From a plasmid, in sequence record NZ_CP035507.1: a stretch of DNA of 64,000 nucleotides; one strand, 5' to 3'. The translations under genes and the position numbers were made by a program. Below, piece after piece: positions 1,874 through 22,886 of this stretch. The number at the start of each line of letters is the position of its first letter. The first letter of the stretch is position 1. The notes below the pieces were generated by a model. That model searched no databases. It was not told the origin of the DNA and was given only the letters and a program-made list of their open reading frames with translations.

Positions 1874-1930
1874 GCCCCCTTTCCCCTCGCGGGGAAATCA
1901 AGGTGGAAGCGCAGGCCTCCACCTGATATT

Positions 1931-2218: not shown

Positions 2219-2334
2219 CGCTGAAACCAGACGAGCGCGCCATGAAGCACTGACGGTTCATTATCGTCATGTGCTCGCCCGATTTGCGTTGAAAAACCGA
2301 AGCCTAAGCCATAGGGTCAGCGGAGGCCCAGTTA

Positions 2335-3243
2335 TTGGGCGCGCATAGTTTTAATGCGCACGGTTATGCTTGGGGGGAAGTCGTGTCGAACGACAAGTCG
2401 GATCTACGCTGGGGAGTCGAGCAACGTCTCGAGTTCATCGAGTTCCGCCTGTTCTGGGAGGGGCACGTGAACCGCATTGATCTGATGGATCAATTCGGGG
2501 TTTCGGTGAACCAGGCATCAATGGACCTTAATCGCTATATCGGTTTTGCCCCCGAGAACATGGTCTATGACAAGAGTGCCCGGACCTACGTGCGCGGGCC
2601 AGGGTTCAAGCCACAGTTTCTAGAGCCTGACGCAAGCCGGTATCTGGCCCAGCTGCGGTCTGTAGCTGACGGTATCCTCGATAGAGAAGACTCTTGGATA
2701 GCCGACTTGCCGCCCTACGCAGCCTCGCCTACGCCCGTGCGTGGCGTTGACCCTATCACCCTCCGGTCAGTCGTTGGGGCAATCCGGCGTTCGGAGGCGA
2801 TCGAGGTCAAATATCAGTCCTTGTCGAACCCTGAGCCACGTTGGCGCTGGATTGCGCCCCATGCCATCGCTTTTGATGGCTTCAGGTGGCATGCGCGCGC
2901 CTATTGTCTCTCCGACGAAGTCTTCAAGGATTTCCTACTCTCTCGGATGATCGAAATTCGTGGGTGCACTGAGAGCGCCGCGGTGCCTTCGGCGGACGCG
3001 GATTGGAATGATAACGTGGTCCTCGAGATAGGCCCGCATCCTGATCTTTCCCCGACACAGGCAAAGGTCATTGCGCTCGACTACGGCATGGATGGGGGAA
3101 AGGCGGCGATCAAGGTTAGGCGCGCCCTTCTCTATTACGCATTGCGACGGCTTGGACTGGATACCGATCCAAGCGCGCGACCGCCCCAAGATCAGCAAAT
3201 CGTGCTGCTTAACCGAGAGACACTGGAGGCGACAGCGCCATGA
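2335..3243 (+). CDS. WYL-domain transcriptional regulator (BrxR/CapW-like; N-terminal wHTH then WYL)
   Basis: N-terminal LRWGVEQRLEFIEFRLFWEGHVNRIDLMDQFGVSVNQASMDL looks like an HTH; it sits immediately upstream of the defence operon. The true start may be GTG 2383. Confidence 0.65.
   Translation: MGAHSFNAHGYAWGEVVSNDKSDLRWGVEQRLEFIEFRLFWEGHVNRIDLMDQFGVSVNQASMDLNRYIGFAPENMVYDKSARTYVRGPGFKPQFLEPDASRYLAQLRSVADGILDREDSWIADLPPYAASPTPVRGVDPITLRSVVGAIRRSEAIEVKYQSLSNPEPRWRWIAPHAIAFDGFRWHARAYCLSDEVFKDFLLSRMIEIRGCTESAAVPSADADWNDNVVLEIGPHPDLSPTQAKVIALDYGMDGGKAAIKVRRALLYYALRRLGLDTDPSARPPQDQQIVLLNRETLEATAP
2339..2357. promoter_or_regulatory. Palindrome GCGCAT-N7-ATGCGC at the 5' end of the WYL regulator gene (candidate auto-operator)
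   Basis: Read directly from the sequence; it overlaps the annotated ATG 2335, and an alternative GTG start at 2383 is preceded by GGGGGAAG. Confidence 0.35.
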
Positions 3244-3316
3244 GAAAAATGGTTCTCTCGTCTGCTGTCGAACACTTACGGCTCGCCAGGTTTGGATTGA
3301 AAAGAGTGCGTCTCAA

Positions 3317-6268
3317 ATGAGTTCAGCAATCCCCACCCCCGGGTCCGTCATCAGCCTCCGCTCCGCCACCTGGAAGGTGCTGGGCACCTCGACGCTGAAG
3401 CGCGGATTCCGGGAGGTCCACTGTCGGGGCCTGAACGGTCTGGTTCGTGACAAGGAGGCCCGGTTCGTCTGGGATCTCGAGAAGGGTGCGCGCGTCCTTG
3501 ACCCCGCGGCGGTCGGGCTCGTCCCGGACACGTCCCCCGGTCTGATCGACACGAAGCTGCACCTAGCAGCCGCGTTCCGGGCGACACCGACGACGACGCG
3601 TCGCCCCCTGACGCTCGGCCGGGCCGCGATTGACGATCTGACGTTCCAGCACCTACCGGTCGAGCGGGCGCTGGCCCAGGACCGTGTGCGCCTCCTAATC
3701 GCGGATGATGTCGGCCTCGGGAAGACCCTTGAAGCGGGCCTGATCACCTCGGAGCTTGCCCTGCGCGGCCGGGCGGACCGGATCCTCGTAGTCACGACCC
3801 GTGCCATGCTTACTCAGTTCCAGAAAGAATTCTGGACGCGGTTTTCGATCCCGCTTTCCCGGCTCGACAGCGCCGCTATCCGACGGATGCGGAACAAGAT
3901 CCCGGCCCATTACAACGTGTTCGACCAGTTCGACCGGTCCATCGTCTCGATCGACACCCTGAAAAGGGACAACCAGATCAGGGACGCGCTGAAACATTCC
4001 TATTGGGATCTGATCATCATCGACGAGGCGCACAACGCCGCCGAACGGAAGTCGGCCGCCGGGTCGAACTCGCAGCGGGCGGAACTGGCGCAGCTACTGT
4101 CTCGCCGGACCGACTCCCTGCTCCTACTGACCGCGACCCCGCATGATGGGTCGCAGGAAAGCTTCGCAAGTCTTATCAAGATGCTGGACCCGACCAGGGT
4201 TCCAGACCCGACGCGGCTGCACCGGTCTGACATCGAGGATCTTGTTGTACGCCGGTTCCGCTCGTCGCCGGAGGTGGTCGCCGATATCGGCCGAGAGGTT
4301 CCAAAACGGCAGCTGTTCCCGCGCCGCTTCCCGCTCAGCCCGCAGGAGGAGGTGGCCTATCAGGCGATCGCGGACCTCCACCTCGATCTTGATGAGGAAC
4401 AGACCCGAGGGCGCGCAATCGATCTGTTCCGGACTACGATCGCCAAAGCGATCTTTTCCAGCCCGGCCGCTTGCTACGAGACGCTCTCACGCCGGATACG
4501 TGGAATTGAAAACAAAACTGCCCGTGGCAGCGAGGCGGACCTGCATCGACTGCGGGCGTTGGCAGAGCAAGTAGATGCGATCGATACGGGTGCTTTCAGC
4601 AAGTATCAGGAACTTCTTCGCCTGCTGCGCCAGTTGAACTGGACCGGGCGGGCAGCGCGGGATCGGCTGGTCATCTTTTCGGAACGGATCGCAACTGTGT
4701 CCTGGCTCGCGGACCGGTTGCGCGAGGACCTTGGGCTCTCGGCCGACCAGGTAGCGCGGGTGGATGGGGGGAGCGTCGAGGCTGACGTGCGGACCCAGGA
4801 GGTGATTGAGGCGTTCGGTCAGGAGCGGTCACCGATCCGGATCCTGATCGCCTCCGACATGGCGTCCGAGGGGCTCAACCTCCACTTCCAGTGCCACCGG
4901 CTCATCCATTTCGACCTCCCCTGGTCCCTTCTGCGGTTCCAGCAGCGCAACGGGCGGATCGACCGGTACGGGCAGGACCGGCCCCCGCAGATCAGCTACT
5001 TCGTTGGCGAGAGCACGCATCCGAAGGTGCGTCAGATGTGGGTGCTCGAGAAGCTTGTCGCGAAGGACGAAGCGGCTCAGGCGGGCGTCGGTGATCCGGC
5101 TGTGTTCCTCGGCGCGGGGGACGCGGACGGGGAGGAGGCGGTCGTCGCGGAGGCGGTCGCCGCCGGCATAGGCGCGGAGGAGTTCGAGCGCCAGATGGAC
5201 GACCGGGCCGCGGAGGCCGTGACCCATTTGTCGATCGACGATGAGTTTGCGGCCCTATTCGGGGATTACGCAGCCCCGGCAACGGCCGACGCGGCTCCCC
5301 CGACGGATCAGGCCCCGCCTCGCCTGTACCCGGACACCTTCACTTACGCTCAGGCGATGATCGAGCGGCTGTCCAGACCGGAGGAGAAAGCCTTCCCGGA
5401 GCTGCCGAAGATCCAAGCTGCCGACCGTCTCATCCAGCTCGCCATCCCTGATGATATGCGCGCGCGCGATGGGTTTGGCTACGCGAGCGAAGGGGCGGTG
5501 GATGGGCGATTCATGCCGGAGGAGGCGGTCGGCCCCGGAGGCCGGATCGAGCTGACCGACCAACCCGAAGTGATCAACCAAGCTATCAACAATGCGAAAG
5601 CGCAGGAGCGTGCCTGGCCTACCGTCCAATATCTCTGGGACGGGCACCCGATCCTGCAATGGTTCGCAGACCGGGCCAGCACCTTCTTCCCGGAGCATGC
5701 CGCCCCGGTGGCGTCCCTCCACGGACGCATGCCTCCGGGGGAGGTGGCCGTGGTCCTGCATGGGGCGATCCCGAACGCGAACGGGGCCCCGGTCGTGGAC
5801 CGGTGGGCCGTGGTGATCCGGTCGGCTGATGGGACCGTGCGGATCGAGGAGGTGGGCACATTTCTGGAACGGACCCGGCTCGCCGGGGACACCCCGAGCC
5901 GCCCATTGGAGGACCTCTCGGCGGCGCAGGCAGCGATCCCGGTCGCGGTGGACCGGTTTCAGACGCATCTTGTCGAGCTGCGGAAGGCACGAGAGGCGGA
6001 TATCCAGCGGGACCTCGACGCGGTTCTTGACCGGCTGACCACCCTGGAGACGCGTTTCCGAGCCCAGCTTACGCTTGATCTTGGCGACGTGCCCGGCGCT
6101 GATGAAGGGCTCAGCCCGGTTGAGAAGAGACGCCTGACAATCCGCCGCAGGCGGGAACAGGAGATCGAAAAGCTGTTCCACGACTGGACAGACTGGTTCG
6201 AGCGGACCCGGAAGATGATTCCGGACCCGAACCCGCATGTCGACGTCAAAGCTGTGTTTGTGGGGTGA
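3317..6268 (+). CDS. SNF2-family DEAH helicase (DISARM DrmD-like)
   Basis: Motif I LLIADDVGLGKT, motif II IIIDEAHNA, LLLTATP, helicase-C region (ILIASDMASEGLNLHF...QRNGRIDRYGQ); ATG 3317 chosen as the first Met after the WYL gene stop. Confidence 0.8.
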   Translation: MSSAIPTPGSVISLRSATWKVLGTSTLKRGFREVHCRGLNGLVRDKEARFVWDLEKGARVLDPAAVGLVPDTSPGLIDTKLHLAAAFRATPTTTRRPLTLGRAAIDDLTFQHLPVERALAQDRVRLLIADDVGLGKTLEAGLITSELALRGRADRILVVTTRAMLTQFQKEFWTRFSIPLSRLDSAAIRRMRNKIPAHYNVFDQFDRSIVSIDTLKRDNQIRDALKHSYWDLIIIDEAHNAAERKSAAGSNSQRAELAQLLSRRTDSLLLLTATPHDGSQESFASLIKMLDPTRVPDPTRLHRSDIEDLVVRRFRSSPEVVADIGREVPKRQLFPRRFPLSPQEEVAYQAIADLHLDLDEEQTRGRAIDLFRTTIAKAIFSSPAACYETLSRRIRGIENKTARGSEADLHRLRALAEQVDAIDTGAFSKYQELLRLLRQLNWTGRAARDRLVIFSERIATVSWLADRLREDLGLSADQVARVDGGSVEADVRTQEVIEAFGQERSPIRILIASDMASEGLNLHFQCHRLIHFDLPWSLLRFQQRNGRIDRYGQDRPPQISYFVGESTHPKVRQMWVLEKLVAKDEAAQAGVGDPAVFLGAGDADGEEAVVAEAVAAGIGAEEFERQMDDRAAEAVTHLSIDDEFAALFGDYAAPATADAAPPTDQAPPRLYPDTFTYAQAMIERLSRPEEKAFPELPKIQAADRLIQLAIPDDMRARDGFGYASEGAVDGRFMPEEAVGPGGRIELTDQPEVINQAINNAKAQERAWPTVQYLWDGHPILQWFADRASTFFPEHAAPVASLHGRMPPGEVAVVLHGAIPNANGAPVVDRWAVVIRSADGTVRIEEVGTFLERTRLAGDTPSRPLEDLSAAQAAIPVAVDRFQTHLVELRKAREADIQRDLDAVLDRLTTLETRFRAQLTLDLGDVPGADEGLSPVEKRRLTIRRRREQEIEKLFHDWTDWFERTRKMIPDPNPHVDVKAVFVG

Positions 6269-6272
6269 TCGA

Positions 6273-9200
6273 ATGGACCTGATCGGGATCGAAAACGAAG
6301 CCGAGTTCTTCCCGTCCGGGACCCTTTCGGACGTGCTGAAGGAGGAGCTTCAGGACATCACCGCCCGCTGGGCCGGTCTGGACCGGGCCGCCCATCCGGT
6401 CGAGCGGCTGGCCCGCGTCGCCGGCCCGACCGTCGAGGCGCTGCGCCAGGTGCGTAACAGTTCGGATCGGTCCCGGCGCGCCGAACTGGTCAGGGACGCG
6501 CACCACGACGTGCTGACCGCCCTCGGCTACGTGTGGCGGCGCGAGGGGGCCTACACGGCTCTCGACGGGGCGCCGGTAATCCCACTCGTGTCCCGCGCAG
6601 CAGATACCAGCGGTCGTGATGCGCTCTGGGTGATCGAGGCGCCGATCCCGGCCCCGGAGGACGAGGCGTCGGACCCGCTGGGGACCTGCTTCACGGAGGA
6701 GCAGCTTCCACCGGACCAGCGCGAGGCAGCCCTGACCGACCGGACCATCGAGTCCGTCCTCGCCGAGGGGGTGTTCGAGCTGTCCGACGGCCCTCGTCAC
6801 GTGCTTGTCCTCGGCCTGTCGCAGATCGTGCTGATCGACAAGAGGAAATGGCCGGCCCGGTCCGTCCTCCGGTTCGACCTTCAAGAAATCTTCGCCCGGG
6901 CGGACCGGGACACGCTCACCGTGATGGCCTGCCTGATCTCCCGAGAGGCGCGCGTCCCGGATCAGGGGGCGCCGATCTCGGATCGGCTCGAGGAGGAGGC
7001 GCAGCGGAACGCAAACGCAGTCACGACCTCCCTGAAGCGAACCGTCCGGGACGCGATCGAGCTGCTCGGCCAGGAGGTGATTGCGGTCACCGGCGGGAAG
7101 TACCCGTCCAGCTTCCCGGACCCGGCCCGGCGCGGGGTCTGGATCGACGGGCCGGAATTGTCGCGCGAATGCCTGCGTTACATGTACCGGCTGTTGTTCC
7201 TGTTCTACGCGGAGGCGAACCCCCGTCTGAACCTGCTCGACATGCGGAACCCGATCTACGCGACCGGATATTCGCTTGAGGCGCTGCGAGAACTGGAATC
7301 CGTTCCGCTCCGGACCACGGCGGACCGGGAGGGGACGTTCCTCTGGGAAAGCCTTCAGCGGACCCTCGACCTCCTCTACACTGGGCTCGACCTCGCCGAT
7401 GAGGAACGGGGGTCCGGTCTTCGCCTACCGGCCGTGAAGGTTTCCCTGCTCGACCCGGAGAGCACGCCACTCCTGAACGGGCTGCGGCTGCGGAACGAGG
7501 CAGTTCAACAGGTGATCCGCCTGCTGTCGCTCCGGTCCACCGGCAAGAGCACGGGCCGGATATCTTACGCGAAGCTTGGGATCGGCCAGTTGGGCGCGGT
7601 CTATGAGACCCTGATTTCGTTCACCGGAGTGGTCGCCAAGACCGACCTCATCGAGCTGAAACCCCGGAAGGGCCGGTCGAATGACGCGGCCGAGGACGGG
7701 GAGGAGGCCGAAGCCACCGAACCGGAAGAGGACGGCGAGGAGGACCTGTTCGGTGAGGAAGAGGCCGAACAGGAGGACGCGTTCCGCCGTGATAAGGTGG
7801 ACAAGCTGGCGCCCAGCTGGTTCGTCCCCCGCAGCCGGATCAACGAATTCGCCCCGGAAGAGATCGTCTTCAACGGGTCCGAGGCGCTCGTCTATGAAAA
7901 GGGGACCTTCATCTACCGCCTCGCCGGCCGGGACCGGGAGAAGTCCGCCTCCTACTACACGCCCGAACCCCTCGCCCGGTTGCTGGTCAAGCACGCGCTG
8001 ATGGAGCGGTGCCGGGACCTGACCGCCGATCAGCTTCTGGACCTGAAGATCCTCGAACCCGCGATGGGCTCTGCGGCCTTCCTCGTGGAGACCACGAACC
8101 AGCTGGCCGACCTCTACCTCGAGCGGAAACAGAAGGCGACGGGCCGGACCATCCCGCAGGAGGACATCGTCCTCGAGAAGCAGCGGGTCCGGGCCTACAT
8201 CGCAGACCGGAACTGCTTCGGGGTAGACCTCAACCCGATCGCCGTCGAACTGGGGGCGATCTCGCTGTGGCTGAACAGCCTGCACGGGAGCGAGTTCTCG
8301 CCCTGGTTCGGGGACCAGCTTCACGCCGGGAACTCCCTGATCGGCGCGCGCCGGGCCGCCTATGCCCCCGCGCTTCTCAGCGCCAAGGCGCAGGGCGACC
8401 TGTGGTTCAACGGGAAGCCCGATGAGATCGGCTGGCGCAAACGCCTGCCGGACGGGCACGTCTGGCAGTGGCTCCTCCCCGCCAAGGACATGGCGAACTT
8501 CGACAAGGACAAGTCGATCGCCCCCTTCGCGAAATCCGCGCAGGATCAGATCAAGGCGTGGCGCAAGGACGGCTTCTTCAAGAAGCTCGAACCCCACGAG
8601 ATCAAGCTGGTCCAGAAGCTCAGCCGGGTCGCCGAGGCGCTGTTCGAGCAGGTGGCCGAGGACCTCGCCAAGACGCGCGCAGCCGCGAATGACGAGATCA
8701 CGCTCTGGCCGAACAAGGTCATGCCGGGGAACAAGCGGCTAGACTTCCACGAAAAGGCTCGCCTGAACGCCCACCTGACCGGGGCTGACCACGCGACCAA
8801 CACGCTCCCCTACAAGCGGCTGAAAACAGCGATGGACGCGTGGTGCGCCCTCTGGCTCTGGCCGCTGGACAAGGCGGACCTTCTGCCCGGCCGGGCGGAG
8901 TTCCTTCAGGGGATGGCGATGATCCTTGAGGGCGGGTTCACCGCTGACGGATCGCTGGCCGCGCCGAGCGTGTCGGAGTTCGCCGATCCGGCCCCGGACT
9001 TCCTCGACCTGCTGGAACCCGACGCCCCCGCCCGCGACCTGTTCAAGGCCGCCGCCAAGCGGCAGGACGGGCTGTTCCGGGAAACGAATGTCGAGGCGCT
9101 GATCGAGAATTTCGACTGGCTGAAGACGGCGGTCGAGGTGGCCGAGCGCGAGCGCTTCGTGCATTTCGACCTGATCTTCGCCGACGTGATGAAGGCGCGC

Positions 9201-11225
9201 GGCGGCTTTGACGTCATCGTCGGAAACCCGCCCTGGGCCAAGCCCTCGTGGAACGAGGGGCTGGTGTTGGCGGATATCGACCCGCTTCATGCGGGGCTGT
9301 CGGCGTCGGACGCGAAGAAGGTCCTGCCCGAGGCGCTGCCTAAGGCCCCGCCCGTGCGGCGCGAGGGGAGGACGGTTCCGGCCGTCGAGGCGTTCCTACA
9401 GGATTTCGTGTCGACTCGGGGGGCGATGGAGGTAACTTCGTCCGAGGTGATGAACCCCTTTGCCGGGGGCGGGTCGAACAACCTCTATCGCTGCTTCATC
9501 GACCTGTCGTTCCGGTTGGTCGCGCAGCAGGGTTATGCGGCGCTGATCCATCAGGACGGGCATCTGGGCGACCCGAAGTCGGGGGTGTTCCGGCGGCACT
9601 GGTATGCGCGGATCGCGAAGCATTTCGAATTCATCAACCGGATGAAATCGCGGAACTTCATGGAGGTTGATCACAACGTCAGATTCAGCCTGAACATCTA
9701 TCGCGGCGAGCAGCGCGCGCCAGATTTCGAGAAATTCACTTACGCCTTCACAGCCGCACAGGTCGAAGATTCGTATGCGGATCAGGACGGGATCGGCCCG
9801 GTCCCCAGTATCAAGAATTCAGAAGGGAACTGGGACACCCGCGGCCATCGTGACCGCGTGATGCGGATCGACCGCGATGCGCTGGCGGTGATCCATGCCC
9901 TTTCTGAAGATGAGACGGTCGCGGTTGAAGAGGCCCGGTTCATTCAGCCTTATTCGGCCCGAACCCTGGACGTCTTCCGCCAGATGGCGCGGTTTCCAAA
10001 ACTCGACGCCGCGATCCCACGGATCGAGCGTTCGGTGAGCGCGGGTGCTGGAGAGCGGATAATTGAAATTCCGTTGTGGCAACAGTCGCCCCACTGGCAT
10101 GAAACGGCTGCCCAAAAAGACGGGACAATCCGGCGTGAGACTGGCTTCCGAGCAGCGGATCAGATGATACTTCAGGGACCGCTGTTTCACGTCGGGAACC
10201 CGATTTACAAGACGCCCAAGGCGATCTCACGGACAAATGCGGATTACCTCGTTGTCGACCTGACCACCGCGCCTGAAGACTATCTGCCGCGCACGAATTA
10301 CGGTCCGGCGCTGGAGATGAAAGATTACCGGAGCCGGATGACCCAGTGCCGCTGGGACCCGACGAAAGGCCACGCCGATTTCTATCGCGTGGCGTTTCGG
10401 AACATGATTGCTCTAAACGGAGAGCGCAGCTTGATCGGTGCGATGATCCCGCCGGGCGCGGCGCACATACACAAGGTTGAAAGCATCGCTTGTGCGGACG
10501 TTTCAGTTTCTCTCGCAATACACTCGTTCGCTTGTTCGATCCCGTTCGACTATTTGGTCAAGGCAAACGGACGCGGTGATCTTTTTGCCTCTGATATAGG
10601 CCGATGGCCGTTTCCAGAACTGGAGGATACCGCCAGGCACCGCTCCCTGCGACTCGCCTGTATCACCTCGGCCTACGCCGACCTCTGGAACTGCCACGCT
10701 ACCACACTTGATGTCCTCCCGTGGTCCTCCCCTGACCCCCGACTCCACCTCGAAGGTCCGGTCGAAGGCCCGGTCACTTGGGACCGAACCGCAGGCCTCC
10801 GGACCGAATTCGCCCGCCGCATGGCGCTTGTCGAGATTGACGTGCTGGTCGCGCAGGCGCTCGGCCTGACCCTCGACCAGTTGATCGAGATCTATCGGAT
10901 CTACTTCCCGGTCCTTCAGGAGAACGAGGCGGGCACCTGGTATGACCAGAAGGGCCGGATCGTCTGGACCTGCTCCAAGGGCCTGCCCGGCGTCGGCTGG
11001 CTCGACGACCGCGGCAAAAGCCCCGGCCGCGCCGCCTGGGAGCGTATCCTCGCCGACAACCCGACGGAACTGACCTGCACCGCCATCGACGACACGATGC
11101 CCGGCGGCCCCCGCACCGTCACCCGCCACTTCGTCGGCCCCTTCACCCGGTGCGACCGGATCGAGGACTACCGCCGCGCCTGGGCCCATTTCGAGCGGCT
11201 GAAATCCGAAGAGGCCGCTGAATGA
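6273..11225 (+). CDS. Very large N6-adenine DNA methyltransferase (gamma-class; DrmMI/PglX-like), 1650 aa
   Basis: Motif I ILEPAMGSAAFLVE (~nt 8050), motif IV VIVGNPPWAKP (~nt 9225), acidic low-complexity insert (EDGEEAEATEPEEDGEEDLFGEEEAEQED, ~nt 7690-7790); ATG 6273 lies 4 nt after the SNF2 stop. Confidence 0.75.
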   Translation: MDLIGIENEAEFFPSGTLSDVLKEELQDITARWAGLDRAAHPVERLARVAGPTVEALRQVRNSSDRSRRAELVRDAHHDVLTALGYVWRREGAYTALDGAPVIPLVSRAADTSGRDALWVIEAPIPAPEDEASDPLGTCFTEEQLPPDQREAALTDRTIESVLAEGVFELSDGPRHVLVLGLSQIVLIDKRKWPARSVLRFDLQEIFARADRDTLTVMACLISREARVPDQGAPISDRLEEEAQRNANAVTTSLKRTVRDAIELLGQEVIAVTGGKYPSSFPDPARRGVWIDGPELSRECLRYMYRLLFLFYAEANPRLNLLDMRNPIYATGYSLEALRELESVPLRTTADREGTFLWESLQRTLDLLYTGLDLADEERGSGLRLPAVKVSLLDPESTPLLNGLRLRNEAVQQVIRLLSLRSTGKSTGRISYAKLGIGQLGAVYETLISFTGVVAKTDLIELKPRKGRSNDAAEDGEEAEATEPEEDGEEDLFGEEEAEQEDAFRRDKVDKLAPSWFVPRSRINEFAPEEIVFNGSEALVYEKGTFIYRLAGRDREKSASYYTPEPLARLLVKHALMERCRDLTADQLLDLKILEPAMGSAAFLVETTNQLADLYLERKQKATGRTIPQEDIVLEKQRVRAYIADRNCFGVDLNPIAVELGAISLWLNSLHGSEFSPWFGDQLHAGNSLIGARRAAYAPALLSAKAQGDLWFNGKPDEIGWRKRLPDGHVWQWLLPAKDMANFDKDKSIAPFAKSAQDQIKAWRKDGFFKKLEPHEIKLVQKLSRVAEALFEQVAEDLAKTRAAANDEITLWPNKVMPGNKRLDFHEKARLNAHLTGADHATNTLPYKRLKTAMDAWCALWLWPLDKADLLPGRAEFLQGMAMILEGGFTADGSLAAPSVSEFADPAPDFLDLLEPDAPARDLFKAAAKRQDGLFRETNVEALIENFDWLKTAVEVAERERFVHFDLIFADVMKARGGFDVIVGNPPWAKPSWNEGLVLADIDPLHAGLSASDAKKVLPEALPKAPPVRREGRTVPAVEAFLQDFVSTRGAMEVTSSEVMNPFAGGGSNNLYRCFIDLSFRLVAQQGYAALIHQDGHLGDPKSGVFRRHWYARIAKHFEFINRMKSRNFMEVDHNVRFSLNIYRGEQRAPDFEKFTYAFTAAQVEDSYADQDGIGPVPSIKNSEGNWDTRGHRDRVMRIDRDALAVIHALSEDETVAVEEARFIQPYSARTLDVFRQMARFPKLDAAIPRIERSVSAGAGERIIEIPLWQQSPHWHETAAQKDGTIRRETGFRAADQMILQGPLFHVGNPIYKTPKAISRTNADYLVVDLTTAPEDYLPRTNYGPALEMKDYRSRMTQCRWDPTKGHADFYRVAFRNMIALNGERSLIGAMIPPGAAHIHKVESIACADVSVSLAIHSFACSIPFDYLVKANGRGDLFASDIGRWPFPELEDTARHRSLRLACITSAYADLWNCHATTLDVLPWSSPDPRLHLEGPVEGPVTWDRTAGLRTEFARRMALVEIDVLVAQALGLTLDQLIEIYRIYFPVLQENEAGTWYDQKGRIVWTCSKGLPGVGWLDDRGKSPGRAAWERILADNPTELTCTAIDDTMPGGPRTVTRHFVGPFTRCDRIEDYRRAWAHFERLKSEEAAE

Positions 11226-12070: not shown

Positions 12071-12096
12071 TGCAGGTTTGGCGGAGTGATGACAGT

Positions 12097-15000
12097 ATGA
12101 ACCCGATCCTCCTCGCCCGTCATGTGCAGGACAGCCTGCGCGAACTGGTCCACACGACGCTGAACAGCACCAGCCCCGCCTTTGAGGGAATGGTGGACCG
12201 GTTCATCACCGAGCCCGCGAACTTCCTGAAGGGGCCGTGGATCTCGGTCGACATGCCGTTCCGGCAGATCGACGGGGCGAAGGAGGGGACGTGGGCGCAG
12301 CCCTTCCCGGAGGTTCCGCTGAAATTCGCGCCCTACCAGCACCAGACGGACGCCTTTGCCCGGCTGAGCGGGACGGCGATGCGCTCGACCCTGGTCGCGA
12401 CCGGGACCGGGTCGGGGAAAACTGAATCCTACCTGTGGCCGATCCTGGACCACTGTCGGCGGAACAAGGGGAAGCCCGGGATCAAGGCGATCCTGATCTA
12501 CCCGATGAACGCGCTGGCGACGGACCAGGCGCGCCGCATTGCGGATGCGCTGACCCGGATCCCGTCGCTGAACGGGGTGCGGGCCGGGATCTATGCGGAC
12601 GCGGAGCCGCAGAACCCGGCGCATGAGGTGACCGAGGACAGCGTGATCACGCATCGCGAGACGATGCGGAAGAACCCGCCGGACATCCTGCTCACGAACT
12701 ACAAGATGTTGGATTACCTGCTTCTACGCGGCCGGGACAAGCCGCTCTGGGCGCAGAACGACCCGGAAACGCTCCGGTTTCTGGTGGTCGACGAGATGCA
12801 CACCTTCGACGGGGCGCAGGGGGCGGACCTGGCCCTGCTGCTGCGCCGCCTGAAGTACCGGCTGAACACCCCGGAAGGACACCTGATCTGCGTGGGGTCG
12901 TCGGCAACGCTTGGCTCCGGGGAAGAGGCGGCGACGGACTTGCGCCAATACGCCGAGACAATCTTCGGCGAGCCGTTCGACGCGGGCGCGGTGGTCCGGG
13001 AGACCCGGAAATCCCCCAACGAGGTGTTCGGCGACGCGGAGTATCTGGACCGGCCGGATCCCGCCGATATCCACGGCGCCTTGAGAGCGGCGACGGAAAT
13101 GGACCAGCCGGGTGCCGCGCGACGGCTCGCTGTCTGTCTGTTCCCGGATCGGACCGACCCCGACCTCGCCTTTCTGGACACAGGTGATCCAGCGGACCCG
13201 GCTTGGCGGATCGCACTCGGGGACCGGCTTGTCCAGCATCACCTGTGTCAGCGGACCCTGAAGATCATCGCCGAGCACAAGGGACCCGCTTCGCTTGAGG
13301 CGATTGCGGCTGGGCTGGGACAAGTCCGGGTCCTTCGTGACTGGCCCGAGGCAGACCTGACTGCGCTCGCCGAGCTGGTCGTAGGGCTGGTCGCCTGGGC
13401 CCGGTCCGGGTCGGCTGAGAGCCCGCGCCCTCTATTCAACGTCAGGCTCCAGCTCTGGATCCGGGAGATGGCCCGGATGGTGACAACCCTGCCGCGACTC
13501 GAGGCGGGCGGGGTCCGTTCACAGATCGACCTTTTCCATGAAATGGACCTGGAAAGGGACCAGCTTTGCCGGGCCCTTCCGGTCGTGAACTGCAACCGGT
13601 GCGGGGCGACCGCGCATCTCGGACGGCAGGACGCCCGGTCGAAGTCGCTACATGCGGACCTGGAGCAGCTCTACCAGGAGTTCTTCGACGAGAACGGGGC
13701 GGACCGGATCCGGCTCATCTATCACGAGTCGATCGACCGGATGGTCCCGGCCAGCGGCGCCGGTGGTCAGATCGTGAAGGGGGTCCTGAACGCGGAAACG
13801 GTCGAGTTCACCCCGGCCGATCACAAGGATCTCGGCCCGGGACCGGCCTCACAGGTCTGGTTGTACAACCCGACCGACGCGAACGGACGGATCGACCGGA
13901 CCTGCCCTGCCTGCGGGCAGGCGCGCGGGCTTCTCCTCTTCGGGATGCGGGCGGCGCGTTTGACGACCGGCATCACCGGTACCCTTTACACCTCCGAACA
14001 GAACGAAGAGAGCCCCGAGGCAAAACCGCGCTTCCTGATGTTCTCGGATTCGGTTCAGGACGCGGCGCACCGGGCGGCGGTGGCCGAAACCCGGAACGCA
14101 CTGTCGGTCTACCAGAAGGCACTCTACGGGGCGCTTCGGTCCGCGGAAACGGGCGCGATGAGCCTGAAAGAGGTGATCGAGGACGTCCCGCGCGCCCAGT
14201 TGAACGACCTCGGCCCGGACGGGTTCACAGCGCTGTTCATCCCGAAGGAGTTGACCTGGCGGCGGCGCTACCGGGAGCTGGTCGAAAGCGGGGCCACCAT
14301 CACCGACCCGGTGTTTCTCGACCATATCCGGATCCGGCTCGGCTGGGAGTATTTCGTCGACCTGAGCTACAGGGCGCATTTCAACCACACGCTTGAATTG
14401 AACGGCATGGCGGCGGCGGATGTGCCCACGGATCTGCTGCGCCTGTCCGCGGAGCGGCTGGCACGGGAGCTGCGAAACGATCTGCCGGGCGCGCCGGAGT
14501 TCGACCCGGCCCTTCTGACCCGGCTCCTCGCCGGGGTGACGCAGCGGATGCGGCGGCAGGGGTCCGTGGCGCACCCCTATCTCGAGAGCGCGATCGCGAA
14601 CGGGAAAGGGAACTACGGGCTGAACTGGTACGCGGCCGCCATCCAGGTGGGCGTGGGGAAGACCGGTTCCCTGCCAAGCCCGGACAGCCGGCGGGGCCTC
14701 GCGCCGATCCCGGTGACCCTCGGCGCCGCCCCGACCGGGTTTGAGAAGATCACCCGGACCGGCCCCGCGAGCTGGTACCGGGACTGGCTGTTCCGGCTGA
14801 TCGGACCGTCCGACCTGCGCTACGGCGCGGACCCTGACGCGATCTATCCGCTCCTCCTGCGCCGACTTGAGGCCGACGACATCGTCCGACGCGTGAACGG
14901 GCCCGAGGGGCAGAACCGGCATGCCTGGCTTCTCGTGCCGGAACGGGTCACCGTCTCCACCGCGACGATCGGGCTGTGCTGCGACTTGTGCGGTCGGCGC

Positions 15001-18000
15001 GAGACCGGGCTTTCGGAAAACGCAGGTGTCCTGATCGGCTCCCCCTGTACGCGGATCGGTTGTGACGGGCACCTAGCAGCGGTTGAGCAGGCTGACCGGC
15101 CCGCCCTGCGCCGCGCCCTTCGCTCGGACCGAAACCACCGGGTGGTGGCGCGAGAACATACCGGCATCCTCGAAACGGATGAGCGGCTGCGGATCGAGAC
15201 CGGGTTCATCAAGAGCGAAACCCGCTGGGCCCCGAACCTGATCTCGGCCACTCCGACCCTGGAGATGGGGATCGATATCGGGGACCTGTCCACCCTGCTT
15301 CTGAGCTCGGTCCCCCCGGAGGAGGCGAATTACGTCCAGCGGATGGGGCGGAGCGGGCGGCGCGACGGGAACGCGCTGAACATTGTGCTGGCGAATGCGC
15401 GTGCCCATGACCTCCAGTTCTGGGAAGACCCAACCCCGATGCTGGCAGGCCAGGTCCGGCCGCCGGGCGTGTTCCTCGCGGCCGAAGAGGTGCTGCTTCG
15501 TCAGGTGACCGCCTATACCCTCGACGCCTATGTCGCGGCCACGAAGGAGAGCGGGGATTACGGGAAGGTCCGGGACGTGCTGAAACGCCGGGCCTCCGGC
15601 GCGACCGAAGGGTTCCCGGTTGAGTGGCTTGAACTGGTTCGCGAAACCGGGCCGGAACTGGCAGACCGGTTCCTGTCTGGCCTGCCGCAAGAGGTGCAGG
15701 ACCGGACGGATCTGGCCGACCGGATCCGATCTTACCTGACCGGAACGGACCCGAAATCGATCGGCTGGCGCGTCGGGGAGGCCTTCGACGGAGCTGCCAC
15801 CGAACGGGCCCGGCTGGTGGAAAAGCGCGAGGAAGCGACCAAGGAACTTGGTCGGCTCAAGAAGCGCCGGGCCGAGCTGACCGATGAAGAATATGAGCGT
15901 CGTGAACAGGACCTGACCCGGGACCGGACCGAGATCAACCGTCTGATCCGAAGCGGGATCGACGATGTGCCGGTGATCAAGTTTCTGACCGACAAGGGAA
16001 TCTTGCCGAACTACGCCTTCCCCGAAGAAGGGGTGAAGCTGACGTCGATCCTGTCGCGGCGCAACGATGGCGCGACAGCACGGGACGAGGACGGGCTTCT
16101 GCACGTCGAATACTCCCGGCCCGCCAGCTCCGCCCTGTCGGAATTCGCGCCGGGCCAGTTCTTCTACGCCAACGGGCGCCAGGTGCAGATCGACCGGATC
16201 GAGATCGGCAAGGAAGATTTGGCCCGCTGGACCTTTTGCCCAGCCTGTTCGCATGTCGCGCACCGGATTGAGGGCGCCGAGACCCGCACCTGCCCGCAAT
16301 GCGGGGACGAGATGTGGTCGGATAGCGGCTCCGCGCATGACGTGGTCCAGCTCAAGTCTGTCATCGCGATCGACAGCGAGGAAAAGGCGGCGATCCGGGA
16401 CGGGGATCAGCGGGACCAGCGTCAGTTCGACCGGGTTCTCATGCCCTTCCATGGACCGGAAGACATCGCCGCCTCCTGGTTCACCAGCCGGGAGAACGGT
16501 GCCCCGTTCGGGTTTGAATTCCTGCCCAGTTGCACGTTCCGCGACTTCAACTTCGGGACGAAGTCCACCCTCCCCGGGCCGCGGATCGCGGGCGAGCGTC
16601 GGCCCGCACAGCCGTTCCGGATCTGTCGCCACTGCGGGTCCCTTCAGGGTCCCCCACGCGGCGAGGACGATCGCGGAACGCACCCGCCGAACTGTCTTGT
16701 CATGCGGGATGAGGACCTGCTTCGCGAGCAGTGGGAAACCGGCGTGTTCCTGATGCGAAAGTTCGACACGGAGGCGATCCGGATCGTGATCCCGGTGGTC
16801 GGGGACGCGGATGATGATGACCTGAAAAGCTTCGTCGCGGCGATCAACCTCGGGATGCGGCGTCACTTCGCGGGGAAGGTCGACCATATCCGGTCCACCA
16901 TCTTCCAGGCGCAGCTGAACGGAATGACCACGGTTCGCAGCCTTTACCTCTACGATTCCGTGCCGGGCGGATCAGGCTATCTGCGTCAGATCGCGGAACA
17001 TCCGAACACGATGCGCGAGGTTGTCAGCCGCGCGGCGGAGGCGCTCCGGGACTGCCCCTGCAACCAGGAGCCGGACCGGAACGGGTGCTTCCGCTGTGTG
17101 AAGCCCTACCGGTCACAGTTCGGGCCCGGCGAGCCAGATCGGGACCGGGCGCGGCAGATGATGGAGGCGATCCTCGAGAAATGGGACAGCCTGACCCAGA
17201 CCGAGACCGGGATCGACGCGTCAATTCGGGGCGCGCTGGTCGAGAGCGTGCTGGAGAAGCGGTTGCTGCGCGCCCTTTCCGGCTTCTATGGAGACGGGGC
17301 GCTGACGCCGCAGGTGCTGCCGGGTGGACGGCGTGGGTTCGTCCTGCGCGCGGGTCGGCCGGACGCGCCGCGCCTCTGGACGATCGAGCCGCAGGTGCAG
17401 ATTGACGCGCGGTTCCGGGGCCTGCCCCGCAAGCGTGTCGACTTCCTGCTCACCCCGGTTGGCCGCAGCAGCGGCCTGCCGATCGTCATCGAAATGGACG
17501 GGATCGAGTATCACGCGGGTACGGTCGCCCAGGACCTGTTGGACCGGATGTTGATGATCAGGTCCGGGCAGGTGCGGGTCTGGACCCTGTCCTGGCGCGA
17601 TCTTGACCCGGAGGACAAGGGCTACCTGAACCCGCTCTCTGAAACCGCCCTCGGGGCGCAGATGACCGGGCCCCTTGGGCGTGCGCTGGCGCATCCGCTG
17701 CTCGCCCCACATGCAGAGGCGGTCCGGACGCTTCAGACAATCAGCACGCTCGATGCACTGAGGCGCCTTCTGGACGGGGATGCGGACGGGGATGCGGTGA
17801 TCCGGTCCGTCCTGATCCGGGGCCTCGTGAAGGGCGGTCGCCCCATCGACCAGCTTCCCCGGCAGGCGGCCCTTTCAGAGGCGGGGCGCCTGTTTCTCTC
17901 CGGTACACAGGCGGTGGAACAGGTCGGGGTCGGGGCGCTCGATCTCTATCTGGCCTGTGAGAAGATCTCGCCCACCGAATGGGCCCAATCGGTTCGCGAC

Positions 18001-18498
18001 CTTCGTCTTCTCCTGCGTTCGGTCCTGCCCGATCCGGGCGAGGTTCCGGCCGCGAAAACCCTCTACACGGAGGCCTGGCGCGGGCTCTGGCGGATCGTGA
18101 ACCTGTTCCAGGGCGTGCGTGGTCTTCATGTCGAGTTCGACGGGCTGGACACGTTGGCCCCACCCGATATGGTGGAACCCGTCGACCAGGGGGACCAGGG
18201 CCCCGGCTTGGCCGCTTGGGAAGAGGTGCGGGCGCTGTGCGACGACGCGTTCCACCCGTTGATTGACGCGTTGATCGCGGCCGAGGCGCCCGGGCCGGAC
18301 CACTTCGGGGACGATCTGGTTGCGGGCGGACGCGTGGTGGGCGCTATGGAATTCGGATGGTCGGATACCCGCGTCGCGGTTGCCGAAACATCCCTTGAGG
18401 GGGTCGGCTGGGCGCTGATCCCGTTTGATCCGGAAACCGATCAGATGGGGGAGACGGTCTCGCGAATTATCACGGCCCTTCAGGAGGCACGGACATGA
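12097..18498 (+). CDS. Giant DExH helicase / DUF1998-like Zn module / DUF559(Vsr-like) nuclease fusion protein (DrmA+DrmB-like), ~2133 aa
   Basis: Motif I ATGTGSGKT (~12415), DEMH, SAT, helicase-C LEMGIDIGDL...QRMGRSGRRDG (~15250-15370), CPACS...CPQCG Zn ribbon (~16240-16310), CPCNQEPDRNGCFRC (~17055-17100), DUF559-like VDFLL...IVIEMDGIEYHAG (~17440-17520). An alternative GTG start at 12070 overlaps the preceding stop. Confidence 0.75.
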   Translation: MNPILLARHVQDSLRELVHTTLNSTSPAFEGMVDRFITEPANFLKGPWISVDMPFRQIDGAKEGTWAQPFPEVPLKFAPYQHQTDAFARLSGTAMRSTLVATGTGSGKTESYLWPILDHCRRNKGKPGIKAILIYPMNALATDQARRIADALTRIPSLNGVRAGIYADAEPQNPAHEVTEDSVITHRETMRKNPPDILLTNYKMLDYLLLRGRDKPLWAQNDPETLRFLVVDEMHTFDGAQGADLALLLRRLKYRLNTPEGHLICVGSSATLGSGEEAATDLRQYAETIFGEPFDAGAVVRETRKSPNEVFGDAEYLDRPDPADIHGALRAATEMDQPGAARRLAVCLFPDRTDPDLAFLDTGDPADPAWRIALGDRLVQHHLCQRTLKIIAEHKGPASLEAIAAGLGQVRVLRDWPEADLTALAELVVGLVAWARSGSAESPRPLFNVRLQLWIREMARMVTTLPRLEAGGVRSQIDLFHEMDLERDQLCRALPVVNCNRCGATAHLGRQDARSKSLHADLEQLYQEFFDENGADRIRLIYHESIDRMVPASGAGGQIVKGVLNAETVEFTPADHKDLGPGPASQVWLYNPTDANGRIDRTCPACGQARGLLLFGMRAARLTTGITGTLYTSEQNEESPEAKPRFLMFSDSVQDAAHRAAVAETRNALSVYQKALYGALRSAETGAMSLKEVIEDVPRAQLNDLGPDGFTALFIPKELTWRRRYRELVESGATITDPVFLDHIRIRLGWEYFVDLSYRAHFNHTLELNGMAAADVPTDLLRLSAERLARELRNDLPGAPEFDPALLTRLLAGVTQRMRRQGSVAHPYLESAIANGKGNYGLNWYAAAIQVGVGKTGSLPSPDSRRGLAPIPVTLGAAPTGFEKITRTGPASWYRDWLFRLIGPSDLRYGADPDAIYPLLLRRLEADDIVRRVNGPEGQNRHAWLLVPERVTVSTATIGLCCDLCGRRETGLSENAGVLIGSPCTRIGCDGHLAAVEQADRPALRRALRSDRNHRVVAREHTGILETDERLRIETGFIKSETRWAPNLISATPTLEMGIDIGDLSTLLLSSVPPEEANYVQRMGRSGRRDGNALNIVLANARAHDLQFWEDPTPMLAGQVRPPGVFLAAEEVLLRQVTAYTLDAYVAATKESGDYGKVRDVLKRRASGATEGFPVEWLELVRETGPELADRFLSGLPQEVQDRTDLADRIRSYLTGTDPKSIGWRVGEAFDGAATERARLVEKREEATKELGRLKKRRAELTDEEYERREQDLTRDRTEINRLIRSGIDDVPVIKFLTDKGILPNYAFPEEGVKLTSILSRRNDGATARDEDGLLHVEYSRPASSALSEFAPGQFFYANGRQVQIDRIEIGKEDLARWTFCPACSHVAHRIEGAETRTCPQCGDEMWSDSGSAHDVVQLKSVIAIDSEEKAAIRDGDQRDQRQFDRVLMPFHGPEDIAASWFTSRENGAPFGFEFLPSCTFRDFNFGTKSTLPGPRIAGERRPAQPFRICRHCGSLQGPPRGEDDRGTHPPNCLVMRDEDLLREQWETGVFLMRKFDTEAIRIVIPVVGDADDDDLKSFVAAINLGMRRHFAGKVDHIRSTIFQAQLNGMTTVRSLYLYDSVPGGSGYLRQIAEHPNTMREVVSRAAEALRDCPCNQEPDRNGCFRCVKPYRSQFGPGEPDRDRARQMMEAILEKWDSLTQTETGIDASIRGALVESVLEKRLLRALSGFYGDGALTPQVLPGGRRGFVLRAGRPDAPRLWTIEPQVQIDARFRGLPRKRVDFLLTPVGRSSGLPIVIEMDGIEYHAGTVAQDLLDRMLMIRSGQVRVWTLSWRDLDPEDKGYLNPLSETALGAQMTGPLGRALAHPLLAPHAEAVRTLQTISTLDALRRLLDGDADGDAVIRSVLIRGLVKGGRPIDQLPRQAALSEAGRLFLSGTQAVEQVGVGALDLYLACEKISPTEWAQSVRDLRLLLRSVLPDPGEVPAAKTLYTEAWRGLWRIVNLFQGVRGLHVEFDGLDTLAPPDMVEPVDQGDQGPGLAAWEEVRALCDDAFHPLIDALIAAEAPGPDHFGDDLVAGGRVVGAMEFGWSDTRVAVAETSLEGVGWALIPFDPETDQMGETVSRIITALQEART

Positions 18499-20666
18499 CA
18501 GACACAATGACCAAGCGGGTCTCCTACGACATCGGCTGCATGAAGAGCCTGCGGAAACTGCCGGACCGGGTTGCGCTCCGGTTCATGGACCTGATGACCA
18601 AGTATATGTCGGACCCGTCCGCGAATGGGCTGAACCTGGAAACGGTGGAAGGATCGAGGGACAGCTCGATCAAGTCCATGCGGGTCGACCAGGGGTATCG
18701 GGCCATCGCCTTCGAGGTCGGCCGCGACATCATGTTCGTGCATGTCAACGAGCACGACAAGGCCTACCGCTGGGCGGCAGGGCGCCGGGTCAAGCTCGAC
18801 CCGGAAACGAACCGGATCCGGGTGATTGAGGAGGTGGACGCGGTTGTCGAACCGGTGGCGACGCCGGATACCTACGCTCCTCGCCTCTTCGACGAGGTGA
18901 CGGATGCAAGGCTGCGCGCCCTCGGCGTGCCGGAGGAGGAGCTGACGGCCGTTCGTCAGATCCCCACGATCGAGGCGCTGGAAGGCGCGGAGGACCGGTT
19001 CGATCCGCTCACCTATCAGATCCTTTACGCGGTCGCGGCCGGTTATGCGGATGAGGAAATCCAGTCCCTGACCGGGGTCGGCGCGGAACCGGACGCGGAA
19101 CCGCAGCAGCCCGCCGCGGAGCTGACCTTCGGAAAGCTGATCGAGACCGAGCAGAGCCGCCAGACCATCTTCATTCCCGAAAGCGAGGAGGAGCTGCGCC
19201 GCGTTTTCGAGGAGGGGCTTGAGGGCTGGCGCGTGTTCCTGCACCCCGAACAGCGCAAGATCGCCTACCGGGACTACAACGGGCCGGTTCTGGTCCGGGG
19301 CGGGGCTGGTACCGGCAAGACTGTCGTCGCGATGCACCGGGCCAAGCACCTTGCAGACCAGATCAAAAACGATCCGACCCGATCCGGCCAGCGGGTCCTT
19401 CTGACCACCTTCACGACCAGCCTCGCGCATGACATCGAGGCGAACCTCCGGACCCTGTGCCCTGACCATCTGGACGCCCGCCCGCCCCGGATCGAGGTGA
19501 TCAACCTCGACCGCTGGGTCTCTCAGTTCCTCAAGCGCAAGAGCTTCGCCCGCGAGGTCGCCTTCTTCGGCGAGGCGCGGGACCGGCTGGACCAGGTGTG
19601 GAAGGAGGTCTTCGATGATCACGAGCTGCCCGAGGGGCTGTCTGAGCCGTTCGTTCGCGCGGAATGGGCGCAGATCGTCCAGGCGAAGGGGCTGACCGAT
19701 CAGAAGGGATACCTGAAGGCGTCCCGGGCCGGCCGGGGCACCCCTCTCGACCGCAAGAAGCGGGCGGTGCTGTGGGACATCTTCGCCGATTACCGGGCCC
19801 GGCTGATCAGCGAAGGGCTCGCGGAGCCTGACGACGCTTACCGCGAGGCGACCGAGATCCTGACCTCCGAAGCGCCGAACCTGCCCTACAGCGCGGTCAT
19901 CGTCGATGAGGCGCAGGACATGGGCGAACAGGCGTTCCGGCTGATCCGCGCGATCATGCCCGAGACCCCGGCGGGGGACCGGAACTCCCTCTTCATCGTG
20001 GGCGACGCGCATCAGCGGATCTATGGGCGGCGGGCCGCCATGTCCGCCTGCGGGATCAACGTGCGCGGCCGCTCGAAGCGCCTCCGCCTGAACTACCGGA
20101 CCACGCAGGAGATCCGGGCCTGGGCGGTCTCGGTTCTCGAGGGGGTCAGCGTTGACGATCTTGATGAAGGGACGGATACCCTACGCGGTTATGTCAGCCT
20201 CATGCGCGGGGCCGCCCCCGAGCTGGTCGGGTGCCGGACAGAGGCGGAGGAGCTGGACGGGCTGGTGGCCTGGGTCCGGGCCCTGCCGCCCGACCAGATC
20301 CGCCTCTCCGACATCGGGGTCCTGTGCGCGCGTCGCGCCGACGCGGACCGGGTTCAGGCGGCGCTCCGCGCGGCCGGTATCGAGACGGTGATGCTCCAGT
20401 CCGGTGCGGACGACCGGTCCGTTCCGGGGATTCGGATCACCACGATGCACCGGGCGAAGGGGCTCGAGTTCTTCGCCGTGGCGATCCCCTTCCTGTCCGA
20501 GGCGGCCTTCCCGCCACCGGGTGCGCTCCGGGCCGCCGTGGATCCGGCAGATAAGGAGGACATTATCATGCAGTACCGGTCCCTCCTGCATGTCGCTGCG
20601 ACCCGGGCGAAAAAAGCTCTCCGCATTTCATGGTCGGGGACGCCAACTGGCATTTTCACGGTCTGA
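18495..20666 (+). CDS. UvrD-like SF1 helicase with an ~120-aa N-terminal accessory domain
   Basis: Walker A VLVRGGAGTGKTVVAMHRA (~19300), VIVDEAQDM, C-terminal ITTMHRAKGLEF; ATGA overlap with the upstream giant gene. Confidence 0.75.
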   Translation: MTDTMTKRVSYDIGCMKSLRKLPDRVALRFMDLMTKYMSDPSANGLNLETVEGSRDSSIKSMRVDQGYRAIAFEVGRDIMFVHVNEHDKAYRWAAGRRVKLDPETNRIRVIEEVDAVVEPVATPDTYAPRLFDEVTDARLRALGVPEEELTAVRQIPTIEALEGAEDRFDPLTYQILYAVAAGYADEEIQSLTGVGAEPDAEPQQPAAELTFGKLIETEQSRQTIFIPESEEELRRVFEEGLEGWRVFLHPEQRKIAYRDYNGPVLVRGGAGTGKTVVAMHRAKHLADQIKNDPTRSGQRVLLTTFTTSLAHDIEANLRTLCPDHLDARPPRIEVINLDRWVSQFLKRKSFAREVAFFGEARDRLDQVWKEVFDDHELPEGLSEPFVRAEWAQIVQAKGLTDQKGYLKASRAGRGTPLDRKKRAVLWDIFADYRARLISEGLAEPDDAYREATEILTSEAPNLPYSAVIVDEAQDMGEQAFRLIRAIMPETPAGDRNSLFIVGDAHQRIYGRRAAMSACGINVRGRSKRLRLNYRTTQEIRAWAVSVLEGVSVDDLDEGTDTLRGYVSLMRGAAPELVGCRTEAEELDGLVAWVRALPPDQIRLSDIGVLCARRADADRVQAALRAAGIETVMLQSGADDRSVPGIRITTMHRAKGLEFFAVAIPFLSEAAFPPPGALRAAVDPADKEDIIMQYRSLLHVAATRAKKALRISWSGTPTGIFTV

Positions 20667-20685
20667 TGATTGTAGCGGTTTTATC

Positions 20686-22876: not shown

Positions 22877-22886
22877 AACCCCGTCC

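Follow-up and report, generated by a model that had tools for sequence, protein, structure and literature searches.

Genes and junctions of the locus

A 64,000-nt stretch of plasmid DNA from NZ_CP035507.1 (hereafter the window) carries, at 2335-20666, six co-oriented open reading frames (ORFs) on the + strand. Judged by homology and gene order, these very probably form an anti-phage and anti-mobile genetic element (MGE) system of ARMADA Type II ('disARM-related Antiviral Defense Array', defined by Bell et al., bioRxiv 10.1101/2025.09.15.676423), with two accessory elements attached, on a conjugative alphaproteobacterial plasmid of the pMM259 kind. They encode a WYL-domain regulator, an SNF2 helicase (ArmA), an adenine methyltransferase (ArmB), a small metallopeptidase, a giant helicase-nuclease (ArmC) and a UvrD-like helicase (ArmD) (Table 1). 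An earlier reading made from the letters alone (the sequence-only reading) had listed six genes in this order, and each ORF is present, as is each motif it quoted: ADDVGLGKT and DEAH in the SNF2 helicase, EPAMGSAAF and NPPW in the methylase, HELGH in the peptidase, and GSGKT, DEMH, SAT and QRMGRSGRR in the giant helicase. Its domain families were likewise supported by Pfam, PADLOC and NCBIfam scans, with Pfam reporting WYL, SNF2, Eco57I/N6_Mtase, DEAD plus MZB (DUF1998), and UvrD.

Gene starts were chosen by reading the junctions and by comparison with relatives. The WYL ORF opens at TTG 2335, and its conserved start is GTG 2383; the pMM259 homologue, as annotated by PGAP, begins at VSNDKSD. 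For armC, an alternative GTG start at 12070 is possible, but all relatives conserve the start at 12097 (MNPILLARH). Reading the junction sequences confirmed every instance of coupling that had been claimed: armA and armB are joined as TGA, 4 nt, ATG (6266-6275), armB and the peptidase gene overlap in an ATGA (11222-11225), the peptidase stop TAG (12068-12070) is followed by 26 nt containing GGAG and then the ATG of armC, and armC and armD again share an ATGA (18495-18498). Predicted sigma-70 promoters and intrinsic terminators in 1850-21800 were no more numerous than expected from shuffled sequence and carry no information on co-transcription.

Table 1. Genes and domains of the locus in the window.
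Feature	Position (nt)	Strand	Description
WYL gene	2383-3243	+	CapW/BrxR-family transcriptional regulator, wHTH-WYL-WCX type (wHTH, winged helix-turn-helix)
armA	3317-6268	+	BrxHII/DrmD-like SNF2 (RapA-type) helicase, 983 aa
armB	6273-11225	+	PglX/DrmMI-like N6-adenine DNA methyltransferase, 1650 aa
Peptidase gene	11222-12070	+	ArdC-like accessory protein, 282 aa, between armB and armC
armC	12097-18498	+	YprA-family DExH helicase-nuclease, 2133 aa
ArmC OB-CON-DUF1998 (MZB)	~16840-17100	+	Pfam MZB
ArmC Vsr-type PD-(D/E)xK nuclease	~17296-17598	+	Motifs VDFLL and IEMDG-x3-H
armD	18495-20666	+	GajB/UvrD-like superfamily 1 helicase, 723 aa
ArmD RelE/YoeB-like N-terminal domain	~18495-18800	+	Candidate domain from profile searches

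Within the core proteins, ArmA has Walker A GLGKT (K136) and Walker B DEAH (D236). ArmB matches Pfam Eco57I/N6_Mtase, has its S-adenosylmethionine-binding motif at aa 595 and NPPW at aa 985, and is covered over nearly its full length by the PADLOC profile REase_MTase_IIG (PDLC03614, 620 bits). ArmC matches Pfam DEAD, Helicase_C and MZB and combines RecA1 and RecA2 domains with insertions, multiple CxxC zinc modules (seven CxxC pairs) and a VDFLL...IEMDG signature. Structure prediction gives a Vsr-like fold for this nuclease region, the nuclease residues are invariant in six divergent ArmC proteins, and a variable region of ~300 aa lies beyond it at the C-terminus. ArmD matches Pfam UvrD-helicase/UvrD_C and PADLOC GajB, with Walker A GAGTGKT and Walker B VDEAQD. 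Its N-terminal domain, which the sequence-only reading overlooked, is probably RelE-like, as judged from marginal but consistent E-values: the three best PDB matches to a profile built from the ArmD N-termini of many loci are YoeB/RelE structures (E 0.006-0.011, over the full domain; YoeB 7v6w, E 0.006; archaeal RelE 1wmi, E 0.011), and the N-terminus from the window itself matches the PHROG family 'RelE-like toxin' over the full domain (E 5.6e-5). Pfam searches with isolated sub-regions (the ArmC nuclease, tail and insertions, the N-termini of ArmD and the peptidase, and the C-termini of ArmA and ArmB) returned no match.

Relationship to ARMADA, DISARM and Druantia

ARMADA II is defined by a strict order of BrxHII/SNF2 helicase (ArmA), PglX-like methylase (ArmB), YprA helicase (ArmC) and GajB-like helicase (ArmD), where ArmC carries OB-CON-DUF1998 and a C-terminal Vsr-type nuclease predicted to be active, and the UvrD/GajB-like helicase of ArmD follows an N-terminal RelE-like domain in one fused protein (bioRxiv 10.1101/2025.09.15.676423). 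The E. coli system gives direct, non-abortive protection against many phages (bioRxiv 10.1101/2025.09.15.676423; mBio 2026, PMC13463889), and depends on all four genes, on NPPW of ArmB and on the ATPase motifs of the other three proteins (Bell et al.; mBio 2026, PMC13463889). The Type II representative in Bell et al. is WP_000937974.1 (bioRxiv 10.1101/2025.09.15.676423), which is the armC product of E. coli O157:H7 SS17, where the gene adjoins Zorya II and Druantia III; an armC on an E. coli plasmid and the chromosomal gene of O157:H7 strains share 98% DNA identity.

We based the assignment on pairwise homology, synteny and this published definition. Against the O157 proteins, ArmA, ArmB and ArmD of the window are 38%, 35% and 39% identical from end to end, and ArmC is 33% identical to WP_000937974.1 over aa 1-1836 (885 bits), compared with 252 bits for the YprA helicase of an ARMADA I-like operon (L012). 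The four proteins stand in the order and with the tight coupling seen in E. coli O157:H7, NCTC 12900 and EDL933 (armA at 3317, armB at 6273, armC at 12097 and armD at 18495, all +), the order A-B-C-D is kept in dozens of loci across phyla, and here a single accessory gene interrupts it, between armB and armC. The motifs required in E. coli are intact (Walker A and B of ArmA, ArmC and ArmD; NPPW of ArmB), with K136 and D236 of ArmA at identical numbering, and ArmC has DUF1998 and an active-looking Vsr nuclease, as ArmD has a RelE-like N-terminus. Because each feature examined is found here (helicase similarity, gene order, the ArmD fusion, the ArmC nuclease and DUF1998, and the motifs), we consider membership in ARMADA II very probable. 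Unlike the E. coli system, the window has a CapW/BrxR-type WYL gene upstream and an ArdC-like gene between armB and armC.

The sequence-only reading had instead proposed a five-gene operon resembling Class 1 DISARM (defence island system associated with restriction-modification), with drmA and drmB fused and drmC replaced, in a combination that it did not recognize as a described system. The likeness is real as far as anatomy goes: an SNF2 helicase and a large N6-adenine methylase precede a YprA-family helicase with a DUF1998 module, resembling the order drmD-drmMI-drmA-drmB, discrimination by methylation is presumed for both, ArmA matches the DrmD profiles of PADLOC (342 bits) and NCBIfam (DISARM_DrmD, NF038317, 357 bits), and the N-terminal half of ArmB matches DrmMI of PADLOC (205 bits). 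However, 357 bits is under the NF038317 cut-off of 610, and the match covers only the N-terminal half. The giant helicase, in turn, scores 47 bits with DrmA compared with 325 with DruE and 885 with E. coli ArmC. Helicase and OB-CON-DUF1998 do share one polypeptide, as the proposed fusion had it, but by profile score this protein lies nearer DruE than DrmA or DrmB, in agreement with the published phylogeny. Rather than a separate DrmA, a separate DrmB and a phospholipase D-type (PLD) DrmC, there is a single 2133-aa polypeptide on which DrmA profiles reach at most 47 bits, Pfam and PADLOC give no PLD match, and, as that reading had also noted, a Vsr-type nuclease fused to the giant helicase is present instead. 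A RelE-UvrD helicase, ArmD, is present in addition. The published YprA phylogeny groups the ARMADA helicases, including E. coli ArmC, the homologue of the protein in the window, with Druantia and not with DISARM (bioRxiv 10.1101/2025.09.15.676423). A divergent DISARM is therefore very improbable. The UvrD-like helicase that had been taken for an extra gene is the core protein ArmD, essential in E. coli, and the proposed five-gene operon resolves into four core genes and one variable cargo gene, considering that the pMM259 locus and most relatives lack the peptidase. Homology searches thus placed the genes in a described system, which is the outcome that reading had itself named as refuting its claim; the name ARMADA II and the evidence for its anti-phage activity date from 2025-2026.

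We give still less credence to a Druantia-type system in which DruE has acquired novel partners. In PADLOC the giant helicase does match DruE1 and DruE3 best (319-325 bits), and DruE is likewise a YprA-family DExH helicase of ~2100 aa with zinc modules, DUF1998 and a C-terminal nuclease domain. But E. coli DruE aligns to ArmC of the window with only 119 + 88 bits, compared with 885 for ArmC of E. coli, no neighbouring gene matches the PADLOC profiles of the Druantia partners (DruABCD, DruMFG, DruH), and in their place stands the set of SNF2 helicase, methylase and UvrD helicase that is the ARMADA II signature. A Type IIG restriction-modification (RM) enzyme beside unrelated helicases is ruled out by the four-gene synteny kept across phyla.

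Several points weigh against the assignment to ARMADA II. The proteins are only 33-39% identical to those of the tested E. coli system, and the last ~300 aa of ArmC cannot be aligned with E. coli ArmC. Matches to curated NCBIfam models all fall short of the cut-offs, and PADLOC 2023 is without ARMADA models. In addition, we infer a single transcript from gene coupling alone.

By analogy with DISARM, BREX (bacteriophage exclusion) and Druantia, ArmB would methylate adenine in a host-specific motif and so mark self DNA, with ArmA, an SNF2 translocase, and ArmB together forming the recognition and modification half. ArmC would load on single-stranded DNA (ssDNA) or on the ends of unmodified invader DNA, translocate, and cut with its C-terminal Vsr-type nuclease, and ArmD, with its putative RelE-like domain and UvrD motor, may assist.

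The WYL regulator, the armB-armC junction and the ArdC-like gene

The first accessory element, 73 nt upstream of armA, matches the Pfam and PADLOC WYL profiles and is homologous over its full length to CapW and BrxR in phmmer searches (CapW 9c5g, E 8e-66; CapW 7tb6; BrxR 7t8k, E 1e-43). Relatives stand upstream of armA in six loci (L001, L003, L004, L016, L043 and L062). It shares with the regulators of BREX and CBASS (cyclic oligonucleotide-based antiphage signalling system) the wHTH-WYL-WCX architecture and a position directly upstream of, and co-oriented with, a defence operon, with the difference that its partner here is ARMADA II. A repressor role is predicted: the protein would likely hold the operon down until a stress or infection signal, which would lessen toxicity when the plasmid enters an unmethylated host. 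A search for inverted repeats around the gene found short, weak palindromes only and no convincing operator.

The second accessory element lies at a junction that differs from the others of the operon. Scanning one genome per species gave 80 ARMADA II-like loci from many phyla, in which gene boundaries were used to count junctions longer than 300 nt. Such junctions make up 0/42 at armA-armB and 1/77 at armC-armD, compared with 25/54 at armB-armC, where the inserts span 0.7-8.5 kb. The inserted ORFs are diverse and mostly co-oriented with the operon; most of those examined are of defence type, and several have no family match. They include SIR2, Ham1, GmrSD, Schlafen/AlbA_2-HATPase, DUF4209, DprA/SLOG, DEAD-PRTase and SMC-like ATPase proteins, AbiEi/AbiEii, a protein kinase and DUF5131, the Septu pair PtuA/PtuB, PDC-S68, PDC-M07A and PDC-M41A, and Hsp70-like, Uma2, TerB and OLD-type ATPase proteins. 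The armB-armC junction, observed at 11226-12096 of the window and across loci L016-L095, thus acts as a hotspot at which other defence genes are inserted. Neither the slot nor WYL regulators nor peptidases are mentioned in the ARMADA paper, as far as its text and supplements could be searched, although its figures or later versions may show the slot (bioRxiv 10.1101/2025.09.15.676423).

The gene in this slot of the window encodes a putative N-terminal domain like ArdC-N (the ssDNA-binding type) and a predicted C-terminal zincin/M78-like metalloprotease domain. The sequence-only reading had called it an HExxH peptidase of the ImmA/IrrE type; the motif stands (HELGH-x3-GH, aa 200-209), but the match to Pfam M78 is marginal (20.8 bits, cut-off 22) and the fold is ArdC-like. 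Its top fold match is ArdC of R388 (IncW; PDB 6SNA; PMC7213743), to which it is ~15% identical when structurally aligned and 23-29% by sequence, and its fold is related to CapP and IrrE; a PDB search with the single sequence gave chance matches only. A pseudogene or spurious ORF is ruled out by dN/dS (the ratio of nonsynonymous to synonymous substitution rates) of 0.07-0.12 against four orthologues, together with 112 homologue clusters. Its GC content at third codon positions is below that of its neighbours.

Compared with loci without the gene, which read ...GCC TGA G ATG AAC... (armB stop, 1 nt, armC start), the peptidase gene is a clean 871-bp insertion, and in both the window and Haematobacter it overlaps armB in an ATGA. 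Its distribution is patchy, at 5 of ~13 closely related loci, and it fills the ARMADA II slot in the window, Haematobacter, Neoroseomonas, Alloyangia and a 2-Mb metagenomic contig. Two Microvirga genomes have a relative downstream of armD, and further relatives stand right behind the YprA helicase gene of an ARMADA I-like operon (L012), beside Type I RM operons, beside a C5 methylase and a TerB protein, and in a VWA/cpYpsA/SIR2(/trypsin) operon near a WYL gene and BREX. The peptidase is cargo outside the ARMADA core, translationally coupled to armB and armC. Its family is strongly associated with defence islands, with methylation-dependent restriction machines enriched among the neighbours, and partnership with ARMADA is not obligate.

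Two of these neighbourhoods can be described more fully. The ARMADA I-like operon of L012 (a contig of JGI 3300056624) runs YprA helicase (1776 aa), ArdC-like peptidase, SNF2 helicase and 1497-aa methylase, and adjoins AbiE and HipA modules; in both ARMADA types, therefore, recruitment of this peptidase family has taken place beside a YprA helicase. Separately, five contigs from metagenomes or metagenome-assembled genomes (L008-L010 and L097-L098) hold peptidase relatives of ~36% identity in a conserved operon of VWA, a 297-306-aa protein of no named family, peptidase, cpYpsA, a 189-aa protein likewise unnamed and SIR2, followed in L008 and L010 by a trypsin-like protease. This operon is divergent from a WYL/WCX regulator and lies beside BREX genes in L097-L098, and it looks like an uncharacterised multi-gene defence system.

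For the role of the peptidase, our best guess, which is speculation, is modulation of restriction-type systems by a protease module that depends on ssDNA. One possibility is restriction alleviation, with the module tempering ArmC on ssDNA intermediates of its own element or on host DNA that is unmethylated; another is removal of the proteins shielding invader ssDNA, so that ArmC can load. The combined proposition, that the armB-armC junction is a dedicated slot recruiting auxiliary defence genes and that the slot protease is a domesticated antirestriction relative working with methylation-based restriction machines, is put forward tentatively, as a possibility still on the doubtful side.

It is unlikely that the peptidase instead belongs to this ARMADA variant as a fifth, integral subunit or as its dedicated regulator, such as an ssDNA-activated protease of the CapP kind that switches the system on or cuts the WYL repressor. 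Such a role would fit the ATGA overlap with armB and the 26 nt to armC, the relatives that adjoin a YprA helicase gene or follow armD, the kinship of the fold to CapP and IrrE, and the strong purifying selection on the gene. However, the gene is absent from otherwise intact loci whose ArmC is 87-99.5% identical, its presence is independent of WYL, unrelated and mostly defence-type genes fill the same slot elsewhere, and family members occur alone or with other systems. Unlike CapP/IrrE-type proteases, it has no adjacent substrate gene of the CapH/ImmR helix-turn-helix type.

More improbable is an antirestriction ArdC that serves the plasmid by aiding conjugative establishment and merely hitch-hikes in the operon. 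The top fold match to R388 ArdC, full-length similarity to plasmid 'ArdC-like' proteins and the conjugative backbone of the window all point that way. But pMM259-type plasmids already carry a canonical ArdC beside ParB, only ~26% identical to this peptidase over the protease domain, every close homologue is found inside ARMADA II, also on contigs of 0.47-2 Mb, and the gene, unlike that of R388, is not in the leading region: it is embedded in a defence operon, co-oriented and coupled with its genes.

A working partnership of the peptidase with the core faces objections of its own. Members of the family occur alone, as a Tn3 passenger and on MGEs, so the peptidase may be unrelated to ARMADA function. 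Canonical ArdC does not need its protease activity for antirestriction (Gonzalez-Montes et al. 2020, PMC7213743), and a WYL-peptidase regulatory pair of the CapH/CapP kind is unlikely, as the two genes occur independently across loci.

Relatives, possible module exchange and plasmid context

Searching plasmids with the giant helicase (tblastn) found loci at 99.5% identity on Martelella mediterranea pMM259, at 94% and 87% on Haematobacter and Gemmobacter plasmids, and at 33% on E. coli IncY plasmids, all with the same order of SNF2 helicase, methylase, giant helicase and UvrD helicase. Compared with pMM259 (L001), the window is 88-92% identical in nucleotides over 5-11225 (upstream genes, armA and armB) and 99.5-100% over 12097-28848 (armC, armD and the Fic gene onward); armB taken by itself is 88-90% identical. 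This step therefore places a recombination breakpoint exactly at the armB-armC junction, the insertion site of the peptidase gene, and suggests a modular exchange of the modification and effector halves.

The remainder of the window is a conjugative plasmid backbone of the pMM259 kind, with toprim, DUF2493 and WGR genes upstream of the locus and Fic, ParA, MobC, relaxase, type IV coupling protein (T4CP) and VirB type IV secretion system genes downstream. The upstream set (window 2-2218) comprises the C-terminus of the toprim protein (to 574), the DUF2493 protein (902-1873) and a small WGR protein (1931-2218); in pMM259 the set occurs twice and follows a gene of >4.3 kb annotated 'bifunctional methyltransferase/DEAD-box helicase'. 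There are two Fic genes, at 20686-21786 (-) and 44105-45367 (-), of which the first (DUF4172 plus Fic; PADLOC SoFic, E 8e-41) is also in pMM259 and converges on armD with 19 nt between the stops. Between the T4CP and VirB genes, a 3.3-kb segment unlike pMM259 (29196-31933, -) encodes a 430-aa DUF4365 protein (PD-(D/E)xK-like) and a 498-aa protein with no Pfam match. The corresponding place in pMM259 holds a hypothetical gene and one annotated 'ATP-binding protein', and the plasmid may have here another variable site of defence-like character. Further along are a single ORF at 47354-48319 in which a PIN domain is joined to the MadM C-terminal half and which looks like a rearrangement scar, a block at 48-52 kb with a GC fraction of 0.70 and ABC-2 and HlyD-type transporter genes, and a Tn3-family transposase gene at 57625-60510 (-).

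A locus first flagged as possibly new and DISARM-like is thus, very probably, an already named and validated system and not a discovery to count; what is new here, modestly, is the CapW/BrxR regulator, the ArdC-like cargo gene and the generalization to a cargo hotspot. ARMADA II can stand under a predicted repressor of the CapW/BrxR type, as BREX and CBASS do under theirs, and it is carried and shuffled by conjugative alphaproteobacterial plasmids, with a breakpoint between armA-armB (modification and specificity) and armC-armD (effector). The armB-armC hotspot offers a cheap handle, guilt by embedding, for finding new defence genes, with the ArdC-like protease family and several slot proteins without matches as candidates. 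Should the protease act on the host side as a modulator of restriction, it would connect the antirestriction proteins of plasmids with the self-control of defence systems.

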